From the IMG/VR virus record IMGVR_UViG_3300038443_000660, positions 194,082 through 242,456 of that record: 48,375 nt of DNA; one strand, written 5' to 3'. The notes below the pieces were generated by a model, which saw nothing but the letters and a program-made list of their open reading frames with translations, was not told the DNA's origin and ran no database searches. Positions 1-13,091 of this stretch are shown here, piece after piece; position 1 is the stretch's first letter; each line of letters opens with the position of its first letter. A program made the translations under genes and the position numbers. Source of the stretch: a virus. Lineage: Duplodnaviria; Heunggongvirae; Uroviricota; Caudoviricetes.

Positions 1-787
1 CAGGGATATCGATGTAGTGTTCCTCAAAGAGATTCTTTAGACCAATTAGGAATGATTCTGCGATTTCAGTTCTAACGTTTGACTGAATTTCAACACGGTT
101 TTCCTCAATCCAATCGGTAACGACCTTATCGAGATAAGAGTCCATCTTATCAATCATGCCTTCAACGAATACTTCTTGATCGGCTTCGTTCTGTTCAAGA
201 ATTTGTTCAACTACTTCTGAAATAACTTCGTTTGAAGCAGCAACAACGGCAGTTTCAAAGATAGACTTTACTCTATTCTTGAATTCTTCTGACAAGTCTT
301 CCTTACCGAACAGAGCGGCGAGATGTTCAGCAACGTCGATGTCTTCCTTAGTGACCTTACGAACCTTAATATCAACTTCTGAATTGTCGTCATCAGAGTC
401 TGAATTTGAATCGTCGTCATTTTCTTCGTCTGAATCCGCATCGGAAGGCTTCTTAATTGTAACTTCCTTGCCTTCTGTGTCGGAATCGTCTACATCGGTA
501 GCACCGTCATCATCATCTTCGTCTTCGTCAGCTTCGTTGACTTGCTTTAACTTCTTATGCTTGATGTCATCCTTATTCTCGGAATCGGCATTGCCTTTCT
601 TGGCTTCAAGCTTTTTATTCTTTTCAGCGTCGTCTTCCTTTTCCTTAACCTGCTTCAACTTGGTAGCAGGGGCAGACTTATCTAGAGCGGGATCAGGAAC
701 TTCTGAAACGCCGTCATCTGACTTGAAAGATTCTTCAAGAACTTTATTCTTAATCGTATTTTTGATTTCATTCAAAAGCTTTGACAT
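1..787 (-). CDS. gp22: Prohead core/scaffold protein (T4 gp22-like), runs off the left edge
   Basis: Not in the ORF track. ATG at 787 with AGGAGA RBS (799-804). Reads MSKLLNEIK..., then an acidic tract, then EDLSEEFKNRVKSIFETAV...MDSYLDKVVTDWIEEN...AESFLIGLKNLFEEHYIDIP. Directly downstream of gp21. Confidence 0.88.
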   Translation of the reverse strand, partial: MSKLLNEIKNTIKNKVLEESFKSDDGVSEVPDPALDKSAPATKLKQVKEKEDDAEKNKKLEAKKGNADSENKDDIKHKKLKQVNEADEDEDDDDGATDVDDSDTEGKEVTIKKPSDADSDEENDDDSNSDSDDDNSEVDIKVRKVTKEDIDVAEHLAALFGKEDLSEEFKNRVKSIFETAVVAASNEVISEVVEQILEQNEADQEVFVEGMIDKMDSYLDKVVTDWIEENRVEIQSNVRTEIAESFLIGLKNLFEEHYIDIP

Positions 788-3706: not shown

Positions 3707-5392
3707 TTACGATATCCAATTGGAGTTTTCGTCGTCATCTTCGGGTTGTTGCTGCATTTGCTGTTGGTCCATGCCACCATCCATTGGCTGACCCCCGCCC
3801 ATTCCATCATCAAAACCACCGCCCATGCCGCCCATTGACGGGTCGCCAAAACCACCGCCCATGCCATCACCGAAACCACCGCCAAATCCGGCCATTTGAT
3901 ATGCCGGTTCTTCATCAATCTCTTTTTTCATTTTTTCCCATTCTTCTTCTGACAATCGAAGAATATTGGTTCTAACCCAATTCTGTGAATAGAATTTACC
4001 AATATATGGTTCGATAGAACGCAGATTGTTGATACGGTTCTGCATGATTTCACCTTCTTTTAGTTCGGTGAAATGTGTGTTTTCCAGATAGGTGATGATG
4101 ATATCGTCACGATACTTTTCCCATTCTGTAGAAGTCAGGACGGATTTGATAATTAATTGGTCGCCCAGAATATCGAGGAACAAATCAGAGAAACGAAGTC
4201 TCAATCGATTAACGAAGTTACCGAACTTCAATTCATCACGAGTAATTTCAGAAGGCCGCCCAAGATTAAAACCAGATTCAGAATCGAGTCGTGAAATAGG
4301 GACATTCAAAGCTTCATAAAGCTTCTTTTTCATGTAGTCGATGTCTGCAATCTGGTCCAGATTTTGTCCACCGGGAAGTGACGTTACAGAAGTGCCTTTA
4401 CCATCTCTTTGAGGAAACCAGAAATCTTCGAGCATAGTCGAAATTCTTTTATCATCTGAAACTTCGCCAGTTTCAGTATCAAACTTCAACTTTTTGTTAT
4501 GTTTCTTCATGATTTCAGCGACGTATTGTTCAGCTTTCGTTTTAGGAAGCTGACCAATCTCAATGTTGAATATTCTTCTTTCTGGCGCTCTGGAAATACG
4601 ATAGATAACCATCGCATCTTCAAGCATTCTTAAAGTCTGAAATGATTTGAGGGCTTTGTGAAGATTTGATAGAATAATCGAACCTGTCGAATCATAGATA
4701 CCAGAATGTGTATATACAATAGAACTAGCAGTAAGAGGGATACCAGATGGAGATTTAGGGCTTACACCATTAGCATTATAAACATAATATTCTATATATT
4801 TTTTGTTAACTTCAATCCCCGGAGTAACGATTCGAGCATAATCCGGAATCTTTTTGTTACTGCGAATCTGTTCACGTACTTTTTTGATTTTTCGAGGGTC
4901 GATATATCTTAATTCATAGATACCATTCTTGGTATTTTTAACATCAATATTTTTTTGATAATACAACCTGCCGTCAACATACCAATTGCGAAAGATTTTA
5001 TAACAATCTTTCTTGAAATTCATCATTCTTAGAATATTGTCAAACTCTTTCTTGATTTTTCCTCTAACAACATCTGGAATATCAATGTGAGATGTATCAA
5101 TATCGACTGGTCCATTTGGATTATCGTAAGCAAAAGCTTCATTGATAATATCGTCAATTGCTTTATCTACTTCCGGTTGACCGGCTAACTGTCTATACTT
5201 GGTTATCAAGGACATTTCGTCCATATTAACGGCGTCAAGATTTACGCCATAATTATAATAACCAGAGGCGGAAGACCCTATTTCAAGGGCACCATCATTA
5301 TTAGTTTTTTCGATGACATTGATTGTGGAACTTTCACGTTCCTTCTTTTCAACATCAACACCACGATTTAGTGAATAGCCCCAAAATCTCAT
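3707..5392 (-). CDS. gp20: Portal vertex protein
   Basis: WYVDGRLYY, YIDPRKIKKVR, LEDAMVIYRISRAPERRIF and EITRDELKF motifs. Confidence 0.97.
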   Translation of the reverse strand: MRFWGYSLNRGVDVEKKERESSTINVIEKTNNDGALEIGSSASGYYNYGVNLDAVNMDEMSLITKYRQLAGQPEVDKAIDDIINEAFAYDNPNGPVDIDTSHIDIPDVVRGKIKKEFDNILRMMNFKKDCYKIFRNWYVDGRLYYQKNIDVKNTKNGIYELRYIDPRKIKKVREQIRSNKKIPDYARIVTPGIEVNKKYIEYYVYNANGVSPKSPSGIPLTASSIVYTHSGIYDSTGSIILSNLHKALKSFQTLRMLEDAMVIYRISRAPERRIFNIEIGQLPKTKAEQYVAEIMKKHNKKLKFDTETGEVSDDKRISTMLEDFWFPQRDGKGTSVTSLPGGQNLDQIADIDYMKKKLYEALNVPISRLDSESGFNLGRPSEITRDELKFGNFVNRLRLRFSDLFLDILGDQLIIKSVLTSTEWEKYRDDIIITYLENTHFTELKEGEIMQNRINNLRSIEPYIGKFYSQNWVRTNILRLSEEEWEKMKKEIDEEPAYQMAGFGGGFGDGMGGGFGDPSMGGMGGGFDDGMGGGQPMDGGMDQQQMQQQPEDDDENSNWIS

Positions 5393-8206: not shown

Positions 8207-8524
8207 TTGGCCAAATCTAATGGAATGCTTGGAAAACAACATTCACCTGAATCAAAACTTGCAATGTCTCAAAAAAAGAAAGATTTATACAATGGAGAGA
8301 ATAATCCGATGTTTGGTAAATCTCATTCTGATGCTGCGAAGAAAAAGGTTGCAGCGTTTCGCAAAGGAAAGATATGGATTCACAAAGACATGGTTTGCAA
8401 ATCGGTTTCTTTAGATGAATTGGAAGAATTTTTATCCGATGGTTGGTCTAGAGGTCGAACCATGGATATACGAGCATCCGAAAAATACATCATGTCTTTA
8501 ATAGAAAATGGATTGACAGATTGA
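8207..8524 (+). CDS. NUMOD3-motif DNA-binding protein without a visible nuclease domain (homing endonuclease remnant)
   Basis: GKQHSPESKLAMS, GENNPMFGKSHS and C-terminal GKIWI...GWSRGR; GGAG RBS with TTG start. Confidence 0.7.
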   Translation: MAKSNGMLGKQHSPESKLAMSQKKKDLYNGENNPMFGKSHSDAAKKKVAAFRKGKIWIHKDMVCKSVSLDELEEFLSDGWSRGRTMDIRASEKYIMSLIENGLTD

Positions 8525-9651: not shown

Positions 9652-9690
9652 GCTGAATATAGTCATTTGTTTATGAGAAAGGTGATTTTA

Positions 9691-9924
9691 ATGACTGATA
9701 AGGTAAATCGGGTTCGGATGGCACAGATTGTAGCGTATGCTAATTTTCCTGAACTCAAGCGATTCCCCGCTGAAAACCATGTGACGGTGAAGAAGGAACT
9801 TCGCCGCAACTTTGGCAATCTCAAGGAACGCTATGTTCAGGCTGTCCAGCGGCTCAATGAGGAACAGCGTGGTTGCCCTGTCGAAATGCCAGTGCTAAAC
9901 GGGTTGTTGCCAATGGCCGCATAA
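9691..9924 (+). CDS. Hypothetical early protein ending in LLPMAA
   Basis: AAAGGTG RBS before ATG 9691. Confidence 0.7.
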   Translation: MTDKVNRVRMAQIVAYANFPELKRFPAENHVTVKKELRRNFGNLKERYVQAVQRLNEEQRGCPVEMPVLNGLLPMAA

Positions 9925-9942
9925 CCTGATAATGGAGTAACA

Positions 9943-10194
9943 ATGAACGTAAAGTGGCGAACGGTCCCCGATGGCCGGGAATTGTTGGAACACCGAATCT
10001 TGACTGAAATGGTCAATGATTCAAATCTCCGAAAATTCTGGGAACGAAGGGATTATCGAGATTTGATATATCATGTCATCCTTTTGACGGGCGACATGAA
10101 TGGTCCTTCTATAGTCATTTGGGGTGACGAGAGGGACAGCGAATCGATACGTGCCGATTTTGAAGAAGAAACACATTGGAAATTTGGAGTCTAA
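9943..10194 (+). CDS. Hypothetical protein
   Basis: GGAG RBS; last ORF before the CRISPR mini-array. Confidence 0.65.
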   Translation: MNVKWRTVPDGRELLEHRILTEMVNDSNLRKFWERRDYRDLIYHVILLTGDMNGPSIVIWGDERDSESIRADFEEETHWKFGV

Positions 10195-10213
10195 ATAATA
10201 CTTGCGGTAGACA

Positions 10214-10312
10214 GTCACGCCTCGTGCGGGCGTGTGGATTGAAACCAGTTGGCGGAAGGCGGCGCTGAATTGGTGTTGGCGTCACGCCTCGTGCGGGCGT
10301 GTAGATTGAAAC
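10214..10312 (+). CRISPR. CRISPR mini-array with type I-C-like repeats (2 x 32 bp, one 35-bp spacer); no cas genes in the window
   Basis: GTCACGCCTCGTGCGGGCGTGTGGATTGAAAC (10214-10245) and a copy with one mismatch (10281-10312). Internal hairpin CACGCCT/GGGCGTG and ATTGAAAC end. Spacer CAGTTGGCGGAAGGCGGCGCTGAATTGGTGTTGGC. Confidence 0.9.
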
Positions 10313-10359
10313 GCCTTTTCAAAGCGATTCATTTCATTGTTGTAGACGAGGCAAAGAAA

Positions 10360-10462
10360 ACAGAACTAAGTCGGCGCAACTCACGCCTGTTTCCGTTAAA
10401 TCCGGTTAGGTTACGCAGGCTCCTTCGATGGGAATACCGGATTCGTCCCGACTTAGTTCTGT
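10360..10462 (+). ncRNA. Unidentified structured RNA candidate
   Basis: Perfect 15-bp closing stem (10360-10374/10448-10462); inner 8-bp helix (10399-10406/10436-10443); crossing helix GCCTG/CAGGC; T-rich tail. Strand is uncertain. Confidence 0.55.
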
Positions 10463-10484
10463 CCCATTTTTATTAAATAATTGC

Positions 10485-10515
10485 TTGACTCTAGATTTTA
10501 ATTATAGTATAAATA
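10485..10515 (+). promoter_or_regulatory. Composite early/late promoter for tmRNA
   Basis: TTGACT-17-TATAAA, where the -10 lies within a perfect T4 late consensus TATAAATA (10508-10515). Confidence 0.65.
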
Positions 10516-10519
10516 CTAC

Positions 10520-10828
10520 GTTATGTTGAAGGTGACTAAAAGGTAGGCAGGACCGGAAGGGCGGTGCTTCCGCATCTCCACCATGAATACATCGCCACCT
10601 GTTATCGAAGGTGCAACCACGTCCCGGAGTCTGGCCGGTGTACTCATGATGGGGATGAAATAGGATCGACTGATACTAAGTAGGAATCCAGAGTAACCGT
10701 GCGCAAGCTACGATATCGCAAGAAACACTATAAATGCCAACGATAATGTTGCATTTGAGAACCGCCTAGCGGCGTAATCTCATTGGGTTTGACAGTTTTC
10801 CTCGAAACAGAAAAACTGTCATTTTTTA
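10520..10828 (+). ncRNA. ssrA: Circularly permuted two-piece tmRNA (alphaproteobacterial type); tag (A)ANDNVAFENRLAA
   Basis: Acceptor piece ends CATCTCC-A-CCA (10573-10583) after T-loop GGCGGTG. Intervening segment 10584-10650. Coding piece starts GGGGATG at 10651, giving a G3.U70 pair. Tag frame 10736-10777. Terminal hairpin 10790-10821. Confidence 0.93.
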
Positions 10829-10830
10829 TA

Positions 10831-10859
10831 TTGACAATGTACTATACATATAGTAATAT
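10831..10859 (+). promoter_or_regulatory. Sigma70-like promoter
   Basis: TTGACA-17-TAATAT, 6 nt before ATG 10866 (possibly a leaderless mRNA). Confidence 0.55.
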
Positions 10860-10865
10860 AATTGC

Positions 10866-11195
10866 ATGATGATAGTTGCAGAAAAAGATTTTAGTTTCCT
10901 GATTAAGCAATTACTCGCTGATTCTAGATTCGCTAAATTCAAATCTGTTACTGGTCCCGGTAGATCGGGTGCTGTTGCTTCTGCGTATGCATCCTATATT
11001 CTTAAAATTCCTTTTGTTCCCTATGGAGAACAAATTCCCGAAAATATTAAACCCGTCCTTATCATTGATACGGTTGAAAATTCAGGAAGGACGTTAAGAA
11101 AAGCCAGTGCCAGATACACTAAAAACAGTATCGAAAATGAAACTGCATTTGTCATTAAAGAACCACCAAGAGTCCATTTTTTCTACGAAGTATAA
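10866..11195 (+). CDS. Small type I phosphoribosyltransferase-fold protein
   Basis: GPGRSG loop and VLIIDTVENSGRTL resembling the PRPP-binding motif. Confidence 0.6.
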   Translation: MMIVAEKDFSFLIKQLLADSRFAKFKSVTGPGRSGAVASAYASYILKIPFVPYGEQIPENIKPVLIIDTVENSGRTLRKASARYTKNSIENETAFVIKEPPRVHFFYEV

Positions 11196-11203
11196 TTGTA
11201 AAT

Positions 11204-11446
11204 ATGACATTACCGAATATCTCTAATAGAGAAAGCTTTTCCAAAGACGTTGAACAATTTGTAATCAGAACCGGCACGGACTATATGGATGCTATTCTGC
11301 ATATATGCGAACAACGCAATATAGAGCCGGAAACGGCGGCAAAACTAATCAACACCAACATCAAGAACATGTTGGAACGACAAGCGTCCGACCAGAATCT
11401 TTTGAATCATGATTCAGTAGTTTCCGATGAAATAGAATTTGAATGA
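11204..11446 (+). CDS. gp33: Late transcription coactivator
   Basis: FSKDVE...YMDAILHICEQRNIEPETAAKLI; directly upstream of gp59 and gp32 as in T4. Confidence 0.88.
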   Translation: MTLPNISNRESFSKDVEQFVIRTGTDYMDAILHICEQRNIEPETAAKLINTNIKNMLERQASDQNLLNHDSVVSDEIEFE

Positions 11447-12024
11447 TAGAACTAGAAGCGTGTAAAACACGATTTGTTGCACTGAAATTACATTTTACCT
11501 CGAATTACGATTATGTGAAATATTCGGGTGCTGTGAAGCGACAGGTCATCAATAAGAATGAAAAATGGGCCGTCTCAAAGATTTGCAAGAAATTTGAAAA
11601 TGAAGATGCTGTATTCAGTTTCTTTCTATCAACCATGCTTGATATGTATGGACGAAATGGCAAGATAGAAACCTATATCGGCCACTATGCTTCACCAGAT
11701 GCTTTCGATAATTTTGAAAAAAACATTGGCTGGTGGAAATCACTTTCTGATAACTTCCATGAAGCCGTACCAAATATGTTTGATGCGATGGTAATCAAGG
11801 AAAATGAAAACCATCCCCAGATATTTGTGAAATACTTGGATAAAGAAGTCAGTTTTAATATCATAGTAGCAATAGTTCTAGCAATGCCAAAAGTTATCGA
11901 GTATTGGCGTTCACATTCTGCCGACACTATTTTGTTTGGTGAATATTTAAATTTCTTCGATAAGTATATCCCATTGGTTCCCATAGAAAAAAGAAAGAAG
12001 ATTAAAGAAAAAATATTAGAATAA
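11443..12024 (+). CDS. gp59: Helicase loader
   Basis: ALKLHFTSNYDYVKYSG and HPQIF motifs; synteny. Confidence 0.85.
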   Translation: MIELEACKTRFVALKLHFTSNYDYVKYSGAVKRQVINKNEKWAVSKICKKFENEDAVFSFFLSTMLDMYGRNGKIETYIGHYASPDAFDNFEKNIGWWKSLSDNFHEAVPNMFDAMVIKENENHPQIFVKYLDKEVSFNIIVAIVLAMPKVIEYWRSHSADTILFGEYLNFFDKYIPLVPIEKRKKIKEKILE

Positions 12025-12173: not shown

Positions 12174-13091
12174 ATGTCACTATCTCTAGCAGATTTGAAG
12201 AAAAGCAAGCAATCACGTTTAGATAACGCCATTGCAAAGTCTCAAAAGACTTACGAAAACAGCGGTTCCAATAAGGATGAACGTTTCTGGTATCCGACCG
12301 TTGATAAGGCAGGAAATGGTTCTGCCGTAATTCGACTTCTCCCTCCATCACCACAAGACGGCTTGGAATCACTTCCGTGGACCAAATACTTTGAACATTC
12401 GTTCAAGGGTCCAACCGGCAAATGGTATATTGAGAAGTGTCTGTCATCAATCGGCAAGCCCGATCCGGTAACAGATTACAACAGCAAGCTTTGGGCTACT
12501 GAAAACGAAACGTTCAAGGAACAGGCACGTAAGCAGAAGCGCAAGCAATACTTTGTGTCTAATATCATGGTTGTCAATGACCCTGCCAATCCTGAAAATA
12601 ACGGTAAGGTTTTCTTGTTCCGTTATGGTCAGAAGATTTTCGAAAAGATTAAGGCAGTCATGACTCCCGATGAACAGTTGGGTGAAGAACCTAACGATCC
12701 GTTTGATTTCTGGACCGGCCAGAATTTCAAGATCAAGATTAAGCAAGTCGGTGGTTTCCGTAACTACGACGACTCGTCTTTCTCTAATCCTTCGGCTATT
12801 TCGAAGGATGATGCGGAAATTGATAAAATCTGGAATTCACAGTATTCACTTGCTGAATTTACAGACCCATCAAAGTATGAAACCTATGAAGTGCTTGAAG
12901 CCAAGTTGGCTAAGGTACTCGATTTGAACAATGAACCTTTGGCAAAGACCGCCGAAAGAGCGTCATTGCAGATGGATACGGATTATCATACTGACTCGTC
13001 GGAATCGGATGACCATTATCAATCTGATAGTTCTGATGATGACGATTCAGACGATGATTTGGACAAAATCTTAGCAGATTTGAAGGACTAA
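12174..13091 (+). CDS. gp32: Single-stranded DNA-binding protein
   Basis: DERFWYP..DKAGNGSAVIRLLP, DPANPENNGKVFLF, NYDDSSF and an acidic C-terminal tail. Confidence 0.96.
   Translation: MSLSLADLKKSKQSRLDNAIAKSQKTYENSGSNKDERFWYPTVDKAGNGSAVIRLLPPSPQDGLESLPWTKYFEHSFKGPTGKWYIEKCLSSIGKPDPVTDYNSKLWATENETFKEQARKQKRKQYFVSNIMVVNDPANPENNGKVFLFRYGQKIFEKIKAVMTPDEQLGEEPNDPFDFWTGQNFKIKIKQVGGFRNYDDSSFSNPSAISKDDAEIDKIWNSQYSLAEFTDPSKYETYEVLEAKLAKVLDLNNEPLAKTAERASLQMDTDYHTDSSESDDHYQSDSSDDDDSDDDLDKILADLKD

Follow-up and report, generated by a model that had tools for sequence, protein, structure and literature searches.

The DNA analysed here (the window, 48,375 nucleotides) comprises bases 194082-242456 of a complete 242,456-bp IMG/VR virus record with direct terminal repeats, IMGVR_UViG_3300038443_000660. 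The carrier is a T4-like phage, presumably virulent, whose genome has a GC content of 38% and 24 tRNA genes. Upstream of its gp33, gp59, and gp32 genes lies an island that a sequence-only reading of the window had described as about 640 bp without a credible coding sequence, holding three adjacent RNA modules: a CRISPR mini-array, a structured RNA (the middle RNA), and a permuted transfer-messenger RNA (tmRNA) (Table 1). All three modules are borne out, by repeats at CRISPR spacing, a structured helix, and a tmRNA scored by Rfam. The lack of coding sequence also holds, as open reading frames (ORFs) within 10195-10865 reach at most 75 aa and none matches a Pfam or PHROG family. A gap of ~672 bp is repeated in the gene calls, as distinct from the DNA, of contigs from three other sequencing runs.

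The carrier was compared with five relatives, which are IMG/VR contigs with a gp32 61-64% identical to its own; two of them are complete genomes (256 and 196 kb). In all five, a permuted tmRNA of alpha type occupies the corresponding position, upstream of gp33-gp59-gp32, and the array and the middle RNA are absent. Their tmRNA stands directly behind a coding sequence and a promoter, in both complete genomes as well. The middle RNA in turn occurs in two other places, the roseophage DSS3P8 and the metagenomic contig L080, without CRISPR repeats and with no tmRNA as its direct neighbour. Thus, the three elements appear to be independent genes and do not make up one conserved cassette.

Table 1. 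Features of the RNA island and its surroundings (window coordinates).
Feature	Position	Strand	Description
83-aa ORFan	9943-10194	+	stop codon 19 nt 5' of repeat 1
CRISPR repeat 1	10214-10245	+	32 nt, type I-C family; hairpin and 11-nt 3' handle ending GATTGAAAC
Spacer 1	10246-10280	+	35 nt; target is a tail or tail-fibre gene of a 36-kb, probably temperate phage
CRISPR repeat 2	10281-10312	+	32 nt; single mismatch to repeat 1 (G-to-A, in the 3' handle)
Spacer 2	10313-10347	+	35 nt; target is a virion structural/tail-fibre-like gene of the same phage
Middle RNA	10360-10462	+	helix P1 (10360-10374 with 10448-10462) around the conserved core 10375-10447
T-run CCCATTTTTATT	10463-10474	+	after P1
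tmRNA promoter	10485-10513	+	sigma-70-type, TTGACT-17-TATAAA; same type before the tmRNA genes of relatives
tmRNA acceptor piece	10519-10583	+	3' half of the tRNA-like domain, alpha-type T-loop
Intervening segment	10584-10650	+	insert in the Rfam alignment; probably removed on maturation, judging from the family
tmRNA coding piece	10651-10789	+	5' acceptor strand GGGGAUG (10651-10657) pairs with 10573-10579
tmRNA intrinsic terminator	10790-10828	+	13-bp hairpin and T-run
gp33, late-transcription coactivator	11204-11446		downstream of the island
gp59, helicase loader	11443-12024		downstream of the island
gp32	12174-13091		downstream of the island

The permuted tmRNA

Two Rfam models recognise the tmRNA gene, tmRNA_permuted (RF04321) at 10519-10777 with 95.3 bits (gathering score 47) and alpha_tmRNA (RF01849) at 10465-10823 with 82.1 bits (threshold 50). 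It has the features of a two-piece tmRNA, in which the acceptor piece lies upstream of the coding piece. The 3' acceptor strand (10573-10579, CAUCUCC) is followed by a discriminator A at 10580 and an encoded CCA at 10581-10583. The third pair of the acceptor stem, G10653·U10577, is the equivalent of G3·U70. The tag frame at 10736-10777 encodes ANDNVAFENRLAA, with a hydrophobic end in AA, and then a stop. ARAGORN misses the gene (10519-10823) despite Rfam scores well above threshold, and phage tmRNA surveys based on ARAGORN will therefore undercount such genes.

The sequence-only reading had placed a TAAATA late-type motif before the tmRNA (10508-10515). However, this site is the -10 element of a sigma-70-type early promoter, which makes late-type transcription of the tmRNA doubtful. 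Within the window, TATAAATA shows no enrichment (7 occurrences observed and 4.6 expected). Before the array, the motif of the same kind, CTAAATA (10191-10197), shares bases with the stop codon of the upstream ORF and is at most a putative promoter. Transcribed from the sigma-70-type promoter, the tmRNA would be charged by the host AlaRS, for which G3·U70 is present. Host SmpB, here assumed, would then deliver it to rescue or tag stalled ribosomes. No SmpB gene was found in the carrier genome.

Two-piece tmRNAs of phages number 53 in a published count, 50 of them aquatic (PMC9004378). In phage Melnitz, ssrA lies behind an early promoter and upstream of gp33, and because this tmRNA was published in the same gene context, the carrier gene is of a known kind (PMC9004378). 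It resembles the tmRNAs of Melnitz and the pelagimyophages in its alpha type, its early-type promoter, its place upstream of gp33, its frequent presence in the clade, and the absence of SmpB (PMC9004378). Unlike the Melnitz-type locus, it has no glutamine riboswitch detectable with Rfam, its tag is different, and its genome measures 242 kb. Also unlike Melnitz-type phages, the carrier has a gp32 whose closest cultured relatives are those of cyanophages (~50% identity), yet psbA was not found in its genome, so it is not a typical cyanophage.

The tmRNA is an ancestral trait of the carrier's phage clade. The tag of one relative reads ANDNVAHEFAVAA. In relatives L054 (2190-2228) and L056 (2310-2348), the tag frame seems to resume with GAC, which is not an alanine codon, and gives DNDNFVPLAIAA; this would mean an unusual resume codon or a misplaced frame.

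The mini-array and the phage it matches

Both repeats have the features of type I-C, being 32 nt long with a GC hairpin and the 3' end noted in Table 1. This repeat family is spread over many phyla. Cellular arrays with repeats 1 nt off (L021, L041) adjoin Cas3, Cas5d, Csd1/Cas8c, Cas7, Cas4, and Cas1, and since these near-identical repeats sit beside I-C cas operons, the array is assigned to type I-C. The nearest cellular repeats, 1 nt different, belong to Bacillota and Spirochaetota metagenome-assembled genomes. A Cas5d family search and tblastn with six I-C Cas proteins gave no match in the 242-kb genome, and no further CRISPR repeat or self-target was found elsewhere in it. The 19 nt between the upstream stop codon and repeat 1 do not form an AT-rich leader. 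As it lacks both adjacent cas genes and a leader, the array is an orphan mini-array, and no third repeat follows spacer 2.

The single change in repeat 2 lies in the part of the handle outside the first CRISPR RNA (crRNA 1), which would therefore be fully canonical. The hairpins of both repeats are intact, and so is the handle that crRNA 1 would use. The function of spacer 2 is uncertain because its 5' handle is mutated and it has no 3' repeat.

The spacers have a uniform length within the range expected of type I-C (~33-37 nt), and both match foreign DNA. Spacer 1 matches the IMG/VR phage L067/G001 at 35/35 positions, with the 5' flank GAC. In L068/G002, also from IMG/VR and a 92%-identical variant of G001, the match is 34/35 and the 5' flank is TTC. 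The canonical protospacer-adjacent motif (PAM) of type I-C is TTC, which is thus found in one of the variants. A separate earlier note on a possible second guide in the 47 nt after repeat 2 led to spacer 2 and its target. Spacer 2 matches G001 8232-8266 at 30/35 positions (5' flank TTG; E = 4.6e-8 for that genome), and the similarity covers precisely the 35 nt that follow repeat 2, a spacer-sized unit, and stops at its borders. The target sequence is identical in a second G001 assembly, and its gene carries an S74 chaperone domain. It was found by local blastn, having been missed by a pattern scan that varied only every sixth position.

G001 is a complete phage of 35,973 bp with terminase, portal, and major head genes. 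It also has a large serine integrase and is therefore probably temperate. IMG/VR samples 3300037418 and 3300037419 yielded the target contigs; the carrier's relatives were in 3300037312, 3300037423, and 3300037466. We infer that carrier and target share a host. The PAM position of protospacer 1 differs between the target variants, with GAC at L067 717-719 and TTC at L068 329-331. As a result, Ser is exchanged for Asn in the tail protein, and the difference would be consistent with escape from I-C targeting.

Within a host, Cas5d would cut the array transcript at the base of each repeat hairpin. The resulting crRNA 1, made up of the 11-nt handle, spacer 1, and a 21-nt hairpin, would be loaded into host Cascade, and Cas3 would degrade a co-infecting or resident copy of the 36-kb temperate phage at its tail genes. 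Since Cas5d, other I-C Cas proteins, and SmpB are all missing from the carrier genome, its guide RNAs and its tmRNA have to rely on proteins of the host, as the sequence-only reading had supposed.

Viral mini-arrays that contain 1-2 spacers but lack cas genes are known to target other viruses (Medvedeva et al., 2019, PMC6858448; modelled by Iranzo et al., 2020, PMC7099407, with use of the Faure et al., 2019, survey). Those of phages have no host-type leaders and probably gained their spacers by recombination (PMC6858448, PMC7099407). The carrier array resembles virus-borne mini-arrays in its number of spacers, its lack of cas genes and of a host-type leader, its cellular-type repeats, and its spacers against another virus. 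The IMG/VR sample numbers of the target are likewise close to those of the carrier's relatives. However, the published cases are mostly prophages or chronic viruses directed against close relatives, whereas a T4-like carrier here faces an unrelated, integrase-bearing 36-kb target. The carrier array also differs in ending after spacer 2 without a terminal repeat. A lone type I-C repeat with no second one nearby lies at 219-248 (minus strand) of L053 (IMGVR_UViG_3300037882_001495), a very AT-rich viral contig of 30 kb, and may be a solitary repeat unit or an RNA anti-CRISPR.

Among 5.8 billion proteins, the sole match of the 83-aa ORFan upstream of the array is itself, and no Pfam, PHROG, or PDB match was found. 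It is missing from the relatives' loci, where the flanking ORFs 9667-9924 and 10866-11195 are conserved, and it is lineage-specific, like the array. The ORFan and the array could form one transcript, and an anti-CRISPR function of the ORFan may be entertained purely as a candidate idea. Positions 9700-10700, which span ORF 9667-9924, the ORFan, the array, and the RNAs, have a GC content of 45-53% against a background of ~35%. In relative L056, ORF 9667-9924 is both conserved and rich in GC. ORF 10866-11195 (109 aa), which lies between the tmRNA and gp33, has a weak PRTase-CE match below the cut-off (E = 0.003) and is kept at ~50% identity in all five relatives.

The middle RNA

In the window, P1 is a perfect 15-bp helix that encloses 73 nt, and the folding z-score is -3.96. 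Together with CCCATTTTTATT, P1 forms a terminator-like end for the array/RNA transcript, in the carrier phage only. Unannotated DNA of Roseobacter phage DSS3P8 and Ruegeria phage V10 matches the core (10376-10448) with 90% identity. A third copy, obtained from one metagenome pattern scan, lies on L080, a 130.7-kb metagenomic contig with a GC content of 38% (JACCDP011264196.1), and its core is ~92% identical to that of DSS3P8. In the alignment, 62 of the 74 columns are invariant. The core is the sole nucleotide match of at least 87% between the carrier and DSS3P8 (56% GC), whose shared proteins are at most 50% identical and whose tmRNAs are 55% identical. The closing helix stands in the same place in each copy, yet its sequence is entirely different and it measures 15 bp (window), 10 bp (DSS3P8), or ~5 bp (L080). 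The RNA is thus carried by a T4-like 242-kb phage, the 146-kb roseophages DSS3P8 and V10, and a 130-kb AT-rich phage-like contig.

The copies are always on the strand of the neighbouring tRNA or tmRNA genes. In DSS3P8, the middle RNA sits between tRNA-Tyr and more tRNA-like genes, and a permuted tmRNA and a GOLLD RNA lie ~1.8 kb upstream, so that all three fall within 2.5 kb. In L080, it is placed between tRNA-Trp and tRNA-Pro among nine tRNAs, and no tmRNA was found within the 7 kb examined around it. Genes nearby encode an RlaP-type RNA-repair nucleotidyltransferase (DSS3P8) and a TilS-like PP-loop enzyme (L080), which together give the middle RNA a setting of tRNA and RNA repair. The GOLLD RNA (~151 bits) and the permuted tmRNA (tag ANINNAPMEMAIAA) are unannotated in GenBank for both roseophages; their sites are at 212-645 and 806-1227 in DSS3P8 (KT870145, L001), and V10 (L002) is alike. 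Several tRNA-like sequences beside the roseophage middle RNA are also unannotated. L080 (sites of note at 1728-1802 and 4577-5182, both minus strand) also encodes a tRNA with anticodon CUA (an amber suppressor, called tRNA-Pyl by ARAGORN) and Hsp20 besides the TilS-like PP-loop protein, and it may be a large phage that recodes stop codons.

Two column pairs, 5/37 and 27/67, show compensatory changes; at 18/58, 23/53, and 24/70 the change is on one side and is compatible with pairing. The model preferred by RNAalifold is nested: the helix 25-32/62-69 surrounds a pair of small hairpins, of which one bears a UUCRA T-loop-like loop. Models with crossing helices agree with the data just as well.

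Searches for known relatives and for further copies gave little. No plus-strand Rfam 15 family matches 10340-10470 at E up to 10, and ARAGORN calls no tRNA or tmRNA in the middle RNA. Exact-pattern scans of IMG/VR, 185,579 species genomes, and JGI metagenomes found no copy beyond that in L080, nor did blastn against plasmids. A covariance model (R1) retrieved only the three known lineages from ~768 kb of DNA, which included four DSS3P8 relatives, I-C loci, and the target phage, and it had no match in 151 Pseudomonadota genomes. The four DSS3P8 relatives are without the middle RNA, and the slot after their tRNA-Tyr is empty or holds another tRNA. No partner protein common to DSS3P8 and the carrier was found.

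Several identities were tried and rejected. A coding function is at odds with substitutions spread over all codon positions; in L080, there is an in-frame stop just 5' of the core and no ATG, GTG, or TTG start inside. A plain intrinsic terminator is likewise rejected, as the helix encloses a conserved 73-nt core and the U-run is missing in DSS3P8 and L080. Hand fitting to a fold like that of hepatitis delta virus (HDV) and to a tRNA cloverleaf was unsatisfying. A Y RNA or YrlA would call for Ro60/Rsr, and no such (TROVE) domain exists in the carrier or DSS3P8. Since blastn against five bacterial genomes gave chance matches alone, the RNA is no obvious rRNA or tRNA mimic. The 25-nt match seen in relative G010 falls within coding sequence and is not accompanied by the remainder of the motif. 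The core and the repeat arm share 8 nt (TCACGCCT), which was judged to be chance because DSS3P8 has the same core without repeats and L080 differs at this place.

Small stable RNAs encoded within a phage tRNA cluster are known from T4, as species 1 and 2 RNAs. Like these and like GOLLD (RF02032), the middle RNA is structured, is not a tRNA, and lies on the same strand among phage tRNA and tmRNA genes. Unlike GOLLD, it is much smaller and has no Rfam sequence or model match. As read from its sequence, the middle RNA appears to be a genuine mobile, sequence-constrained small RNA gene. It would be a mobile RNA of ~75-100 nt that travels with tRNA-type genes in large phages. More tentatively, at a little below even odds, the core 10375-10447 could represent a new structured phage RNA class that moves horizontally between unrelated tRNA-rich large phages. 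It would be kept near-invariant by an intricate and possibly pseudoknotted fold that includes the UUCRA T-loop-like hairpin and would bind a conserved host factor, or catalyse a reaction, in tRNA or translation biology. Our conjecture is that its most likely role is in trans, as a stable structured RNA serving translation or tRNA-centred phage-host conflict, for example as a decoy or scaffold.

Origin and meaning of the island

The reading we prefer, with a probability of about 60%, is that the island consists of three independent RNA genes gathered in a variable intergenic slot upstream of gp33-gp59-gp32. This slot, upstream of the ancestral tmRNA gene, would have collected, besides the ORFan, a fragment of an array and a small RNA that is mobile. 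The mini-array would be a leaderless repeat-spacer-repeat-spacer piece of an I-C array, most likely captured from a host array by recombination. Such a capture fits the presence of two adjacent spacers against one phage, the absence of a leader, and the truncation after spacer 2.

Several observations weigh against this account or its parts. The exact array repeat was not found in 185,579 species genomes, which offers no host with a matching I-C system. A virulent T4-like phage has a short window for loading host Cascade. Present-day interference may be weak or already escaped, given the GAC flank of protospacer 1 in G001 and the TTG flank and five mismatches of the spacer 2 target. For the middle RNA, the covariation test has low power because there are three independent sequences, and 62 of 500 shuffles reach the observed score. 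Moreover, every change between DSS3P8 and the two AT-rich copies is GC to AT.

The sequence-only reading had proposed that the three RNAs form an RNA-only host-takeover cassette, co-selected and co-transcribed. Its descriptive half stands, since the modules are adjacent and on the same strand in ~640 bp without coding sequence, and all depend on host proteins; the clustering of middle RNA, tmRNA, and GOLLD in DSS3P8 also speaks for a cassette. Its other half, a co-functional or conserved unit, is largely refuted by the missing conservation, as the five relatives keep the tmRNA alone, the middle RNA is found elsewhere without arrays, and no tmRNA lies within the 7 kb of L080 examined. The tmRNA has its own promoter and terminator, and the array and middle RNA end in a helix and T-run before that promoter. 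The cassette reading as a whole has only a slender chance. Another reading, unlikely but with a published precedent, takes the array mainly as an RNA anti-CRISPR or decoy, in the manner of an RNA anti-CRISPR repeat (Racr) or a viral crRNA-like RNA. Its abundant repeat RNA would soak up host Cas5d and Cas7 or displace host crRNAs directed against the carrier, its spacers being passengers. RacrIC1, a phage repeat unit, inhibits type I-C experimentally (PMC10651486), and one published repeat unit lies 11 nt downstream of an acr gene (PMC10651486); in the carrier, 19 nt separate the ORFan and repeat 1. The solitary repeat in L053 points the same way, and the array shares with RNA anti-CRISPRs the phage I-C repeat RNA, the lack of cas genes, and the position directly after a small ORF (Camara-Wilpert et al., 2023, PMC10651486). 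However, Racrs are solitary repeats without spacers, whereas the carrier has two repeats at CRISPR spacing with genuine spacers, from which a canonical crRNA is expected. Both spacer units match a single rival phage, one exactly and with a variant that has the canonical PAM. In addition, the ORFan has no similarity to known proteins.

The array might instead be inert, recently captured scrap and the middle RNA a neutral transferred fragment, which would leave the tmRNA alone functional. The lack of a leader and a third repeat, the mutated repeat 2, and the absence of the array from the relatives agree with this, and transfer alone could explain the 90% identity of the middle RNA. Such an account is nevertheless quite improbable in view of the intact repeat hairpins and crRNA 1 handle and of the ~672-bp gap seen in gene calls from other sequencing runs. 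A neutral fragment, moreover, would not gain three closing helices yet stay more conserved than any shared gene. Very unlikely, finally, is that the middle RNA is a new self-cleaving ribozyme or processing element that frees tRNAs, crRNA 2, and the tmRNA from polycistronic precursors. Self-cleaving ribozymes beside phage tRNAs are known, the middle RNA is embedded in the tRNA operons of DSS3P8 and L080, and in the window it occupies the place of a third repeat, which would otherwise set the 3' end of crRNA 2. Its very high core conservation and possible pseudoknots would also suit a ribozyme. However, no Rfam ribozyme family was matched, an HDV-like fold could not be fitted by hand, and the DSS3P8 relatives process the same tRNAs without it.

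As mechanisms, the elements do not make a new combination; the two-piece phage tmRNA in this gene context (PMC9004378) and the virus-borne mini-array (PMC6858448, PMC7099407) have each been published separately. The array and the tmRNA belong to known kinds; the middle RNA may represent a new RNA family. The tmRNA adds another clade to the aquatic T4-like phages with an alpha-type two-piece ssrA. The array is a clean metagenomic case of a large T4-like phage with CRISPR guides against an unrelated temperate phage. It widens the known range of virus-versus-virus CRISPR use, as the published cases are mostly prophages or chronic viruses against close kin. The spacer-target pair is directly testable, and both protospacers and the PAM-bearing variant were recovered from IMG/VR. 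The middle RNA, a candidate family conserved far beyond any gene common to its carriers, is the part most worth following up.

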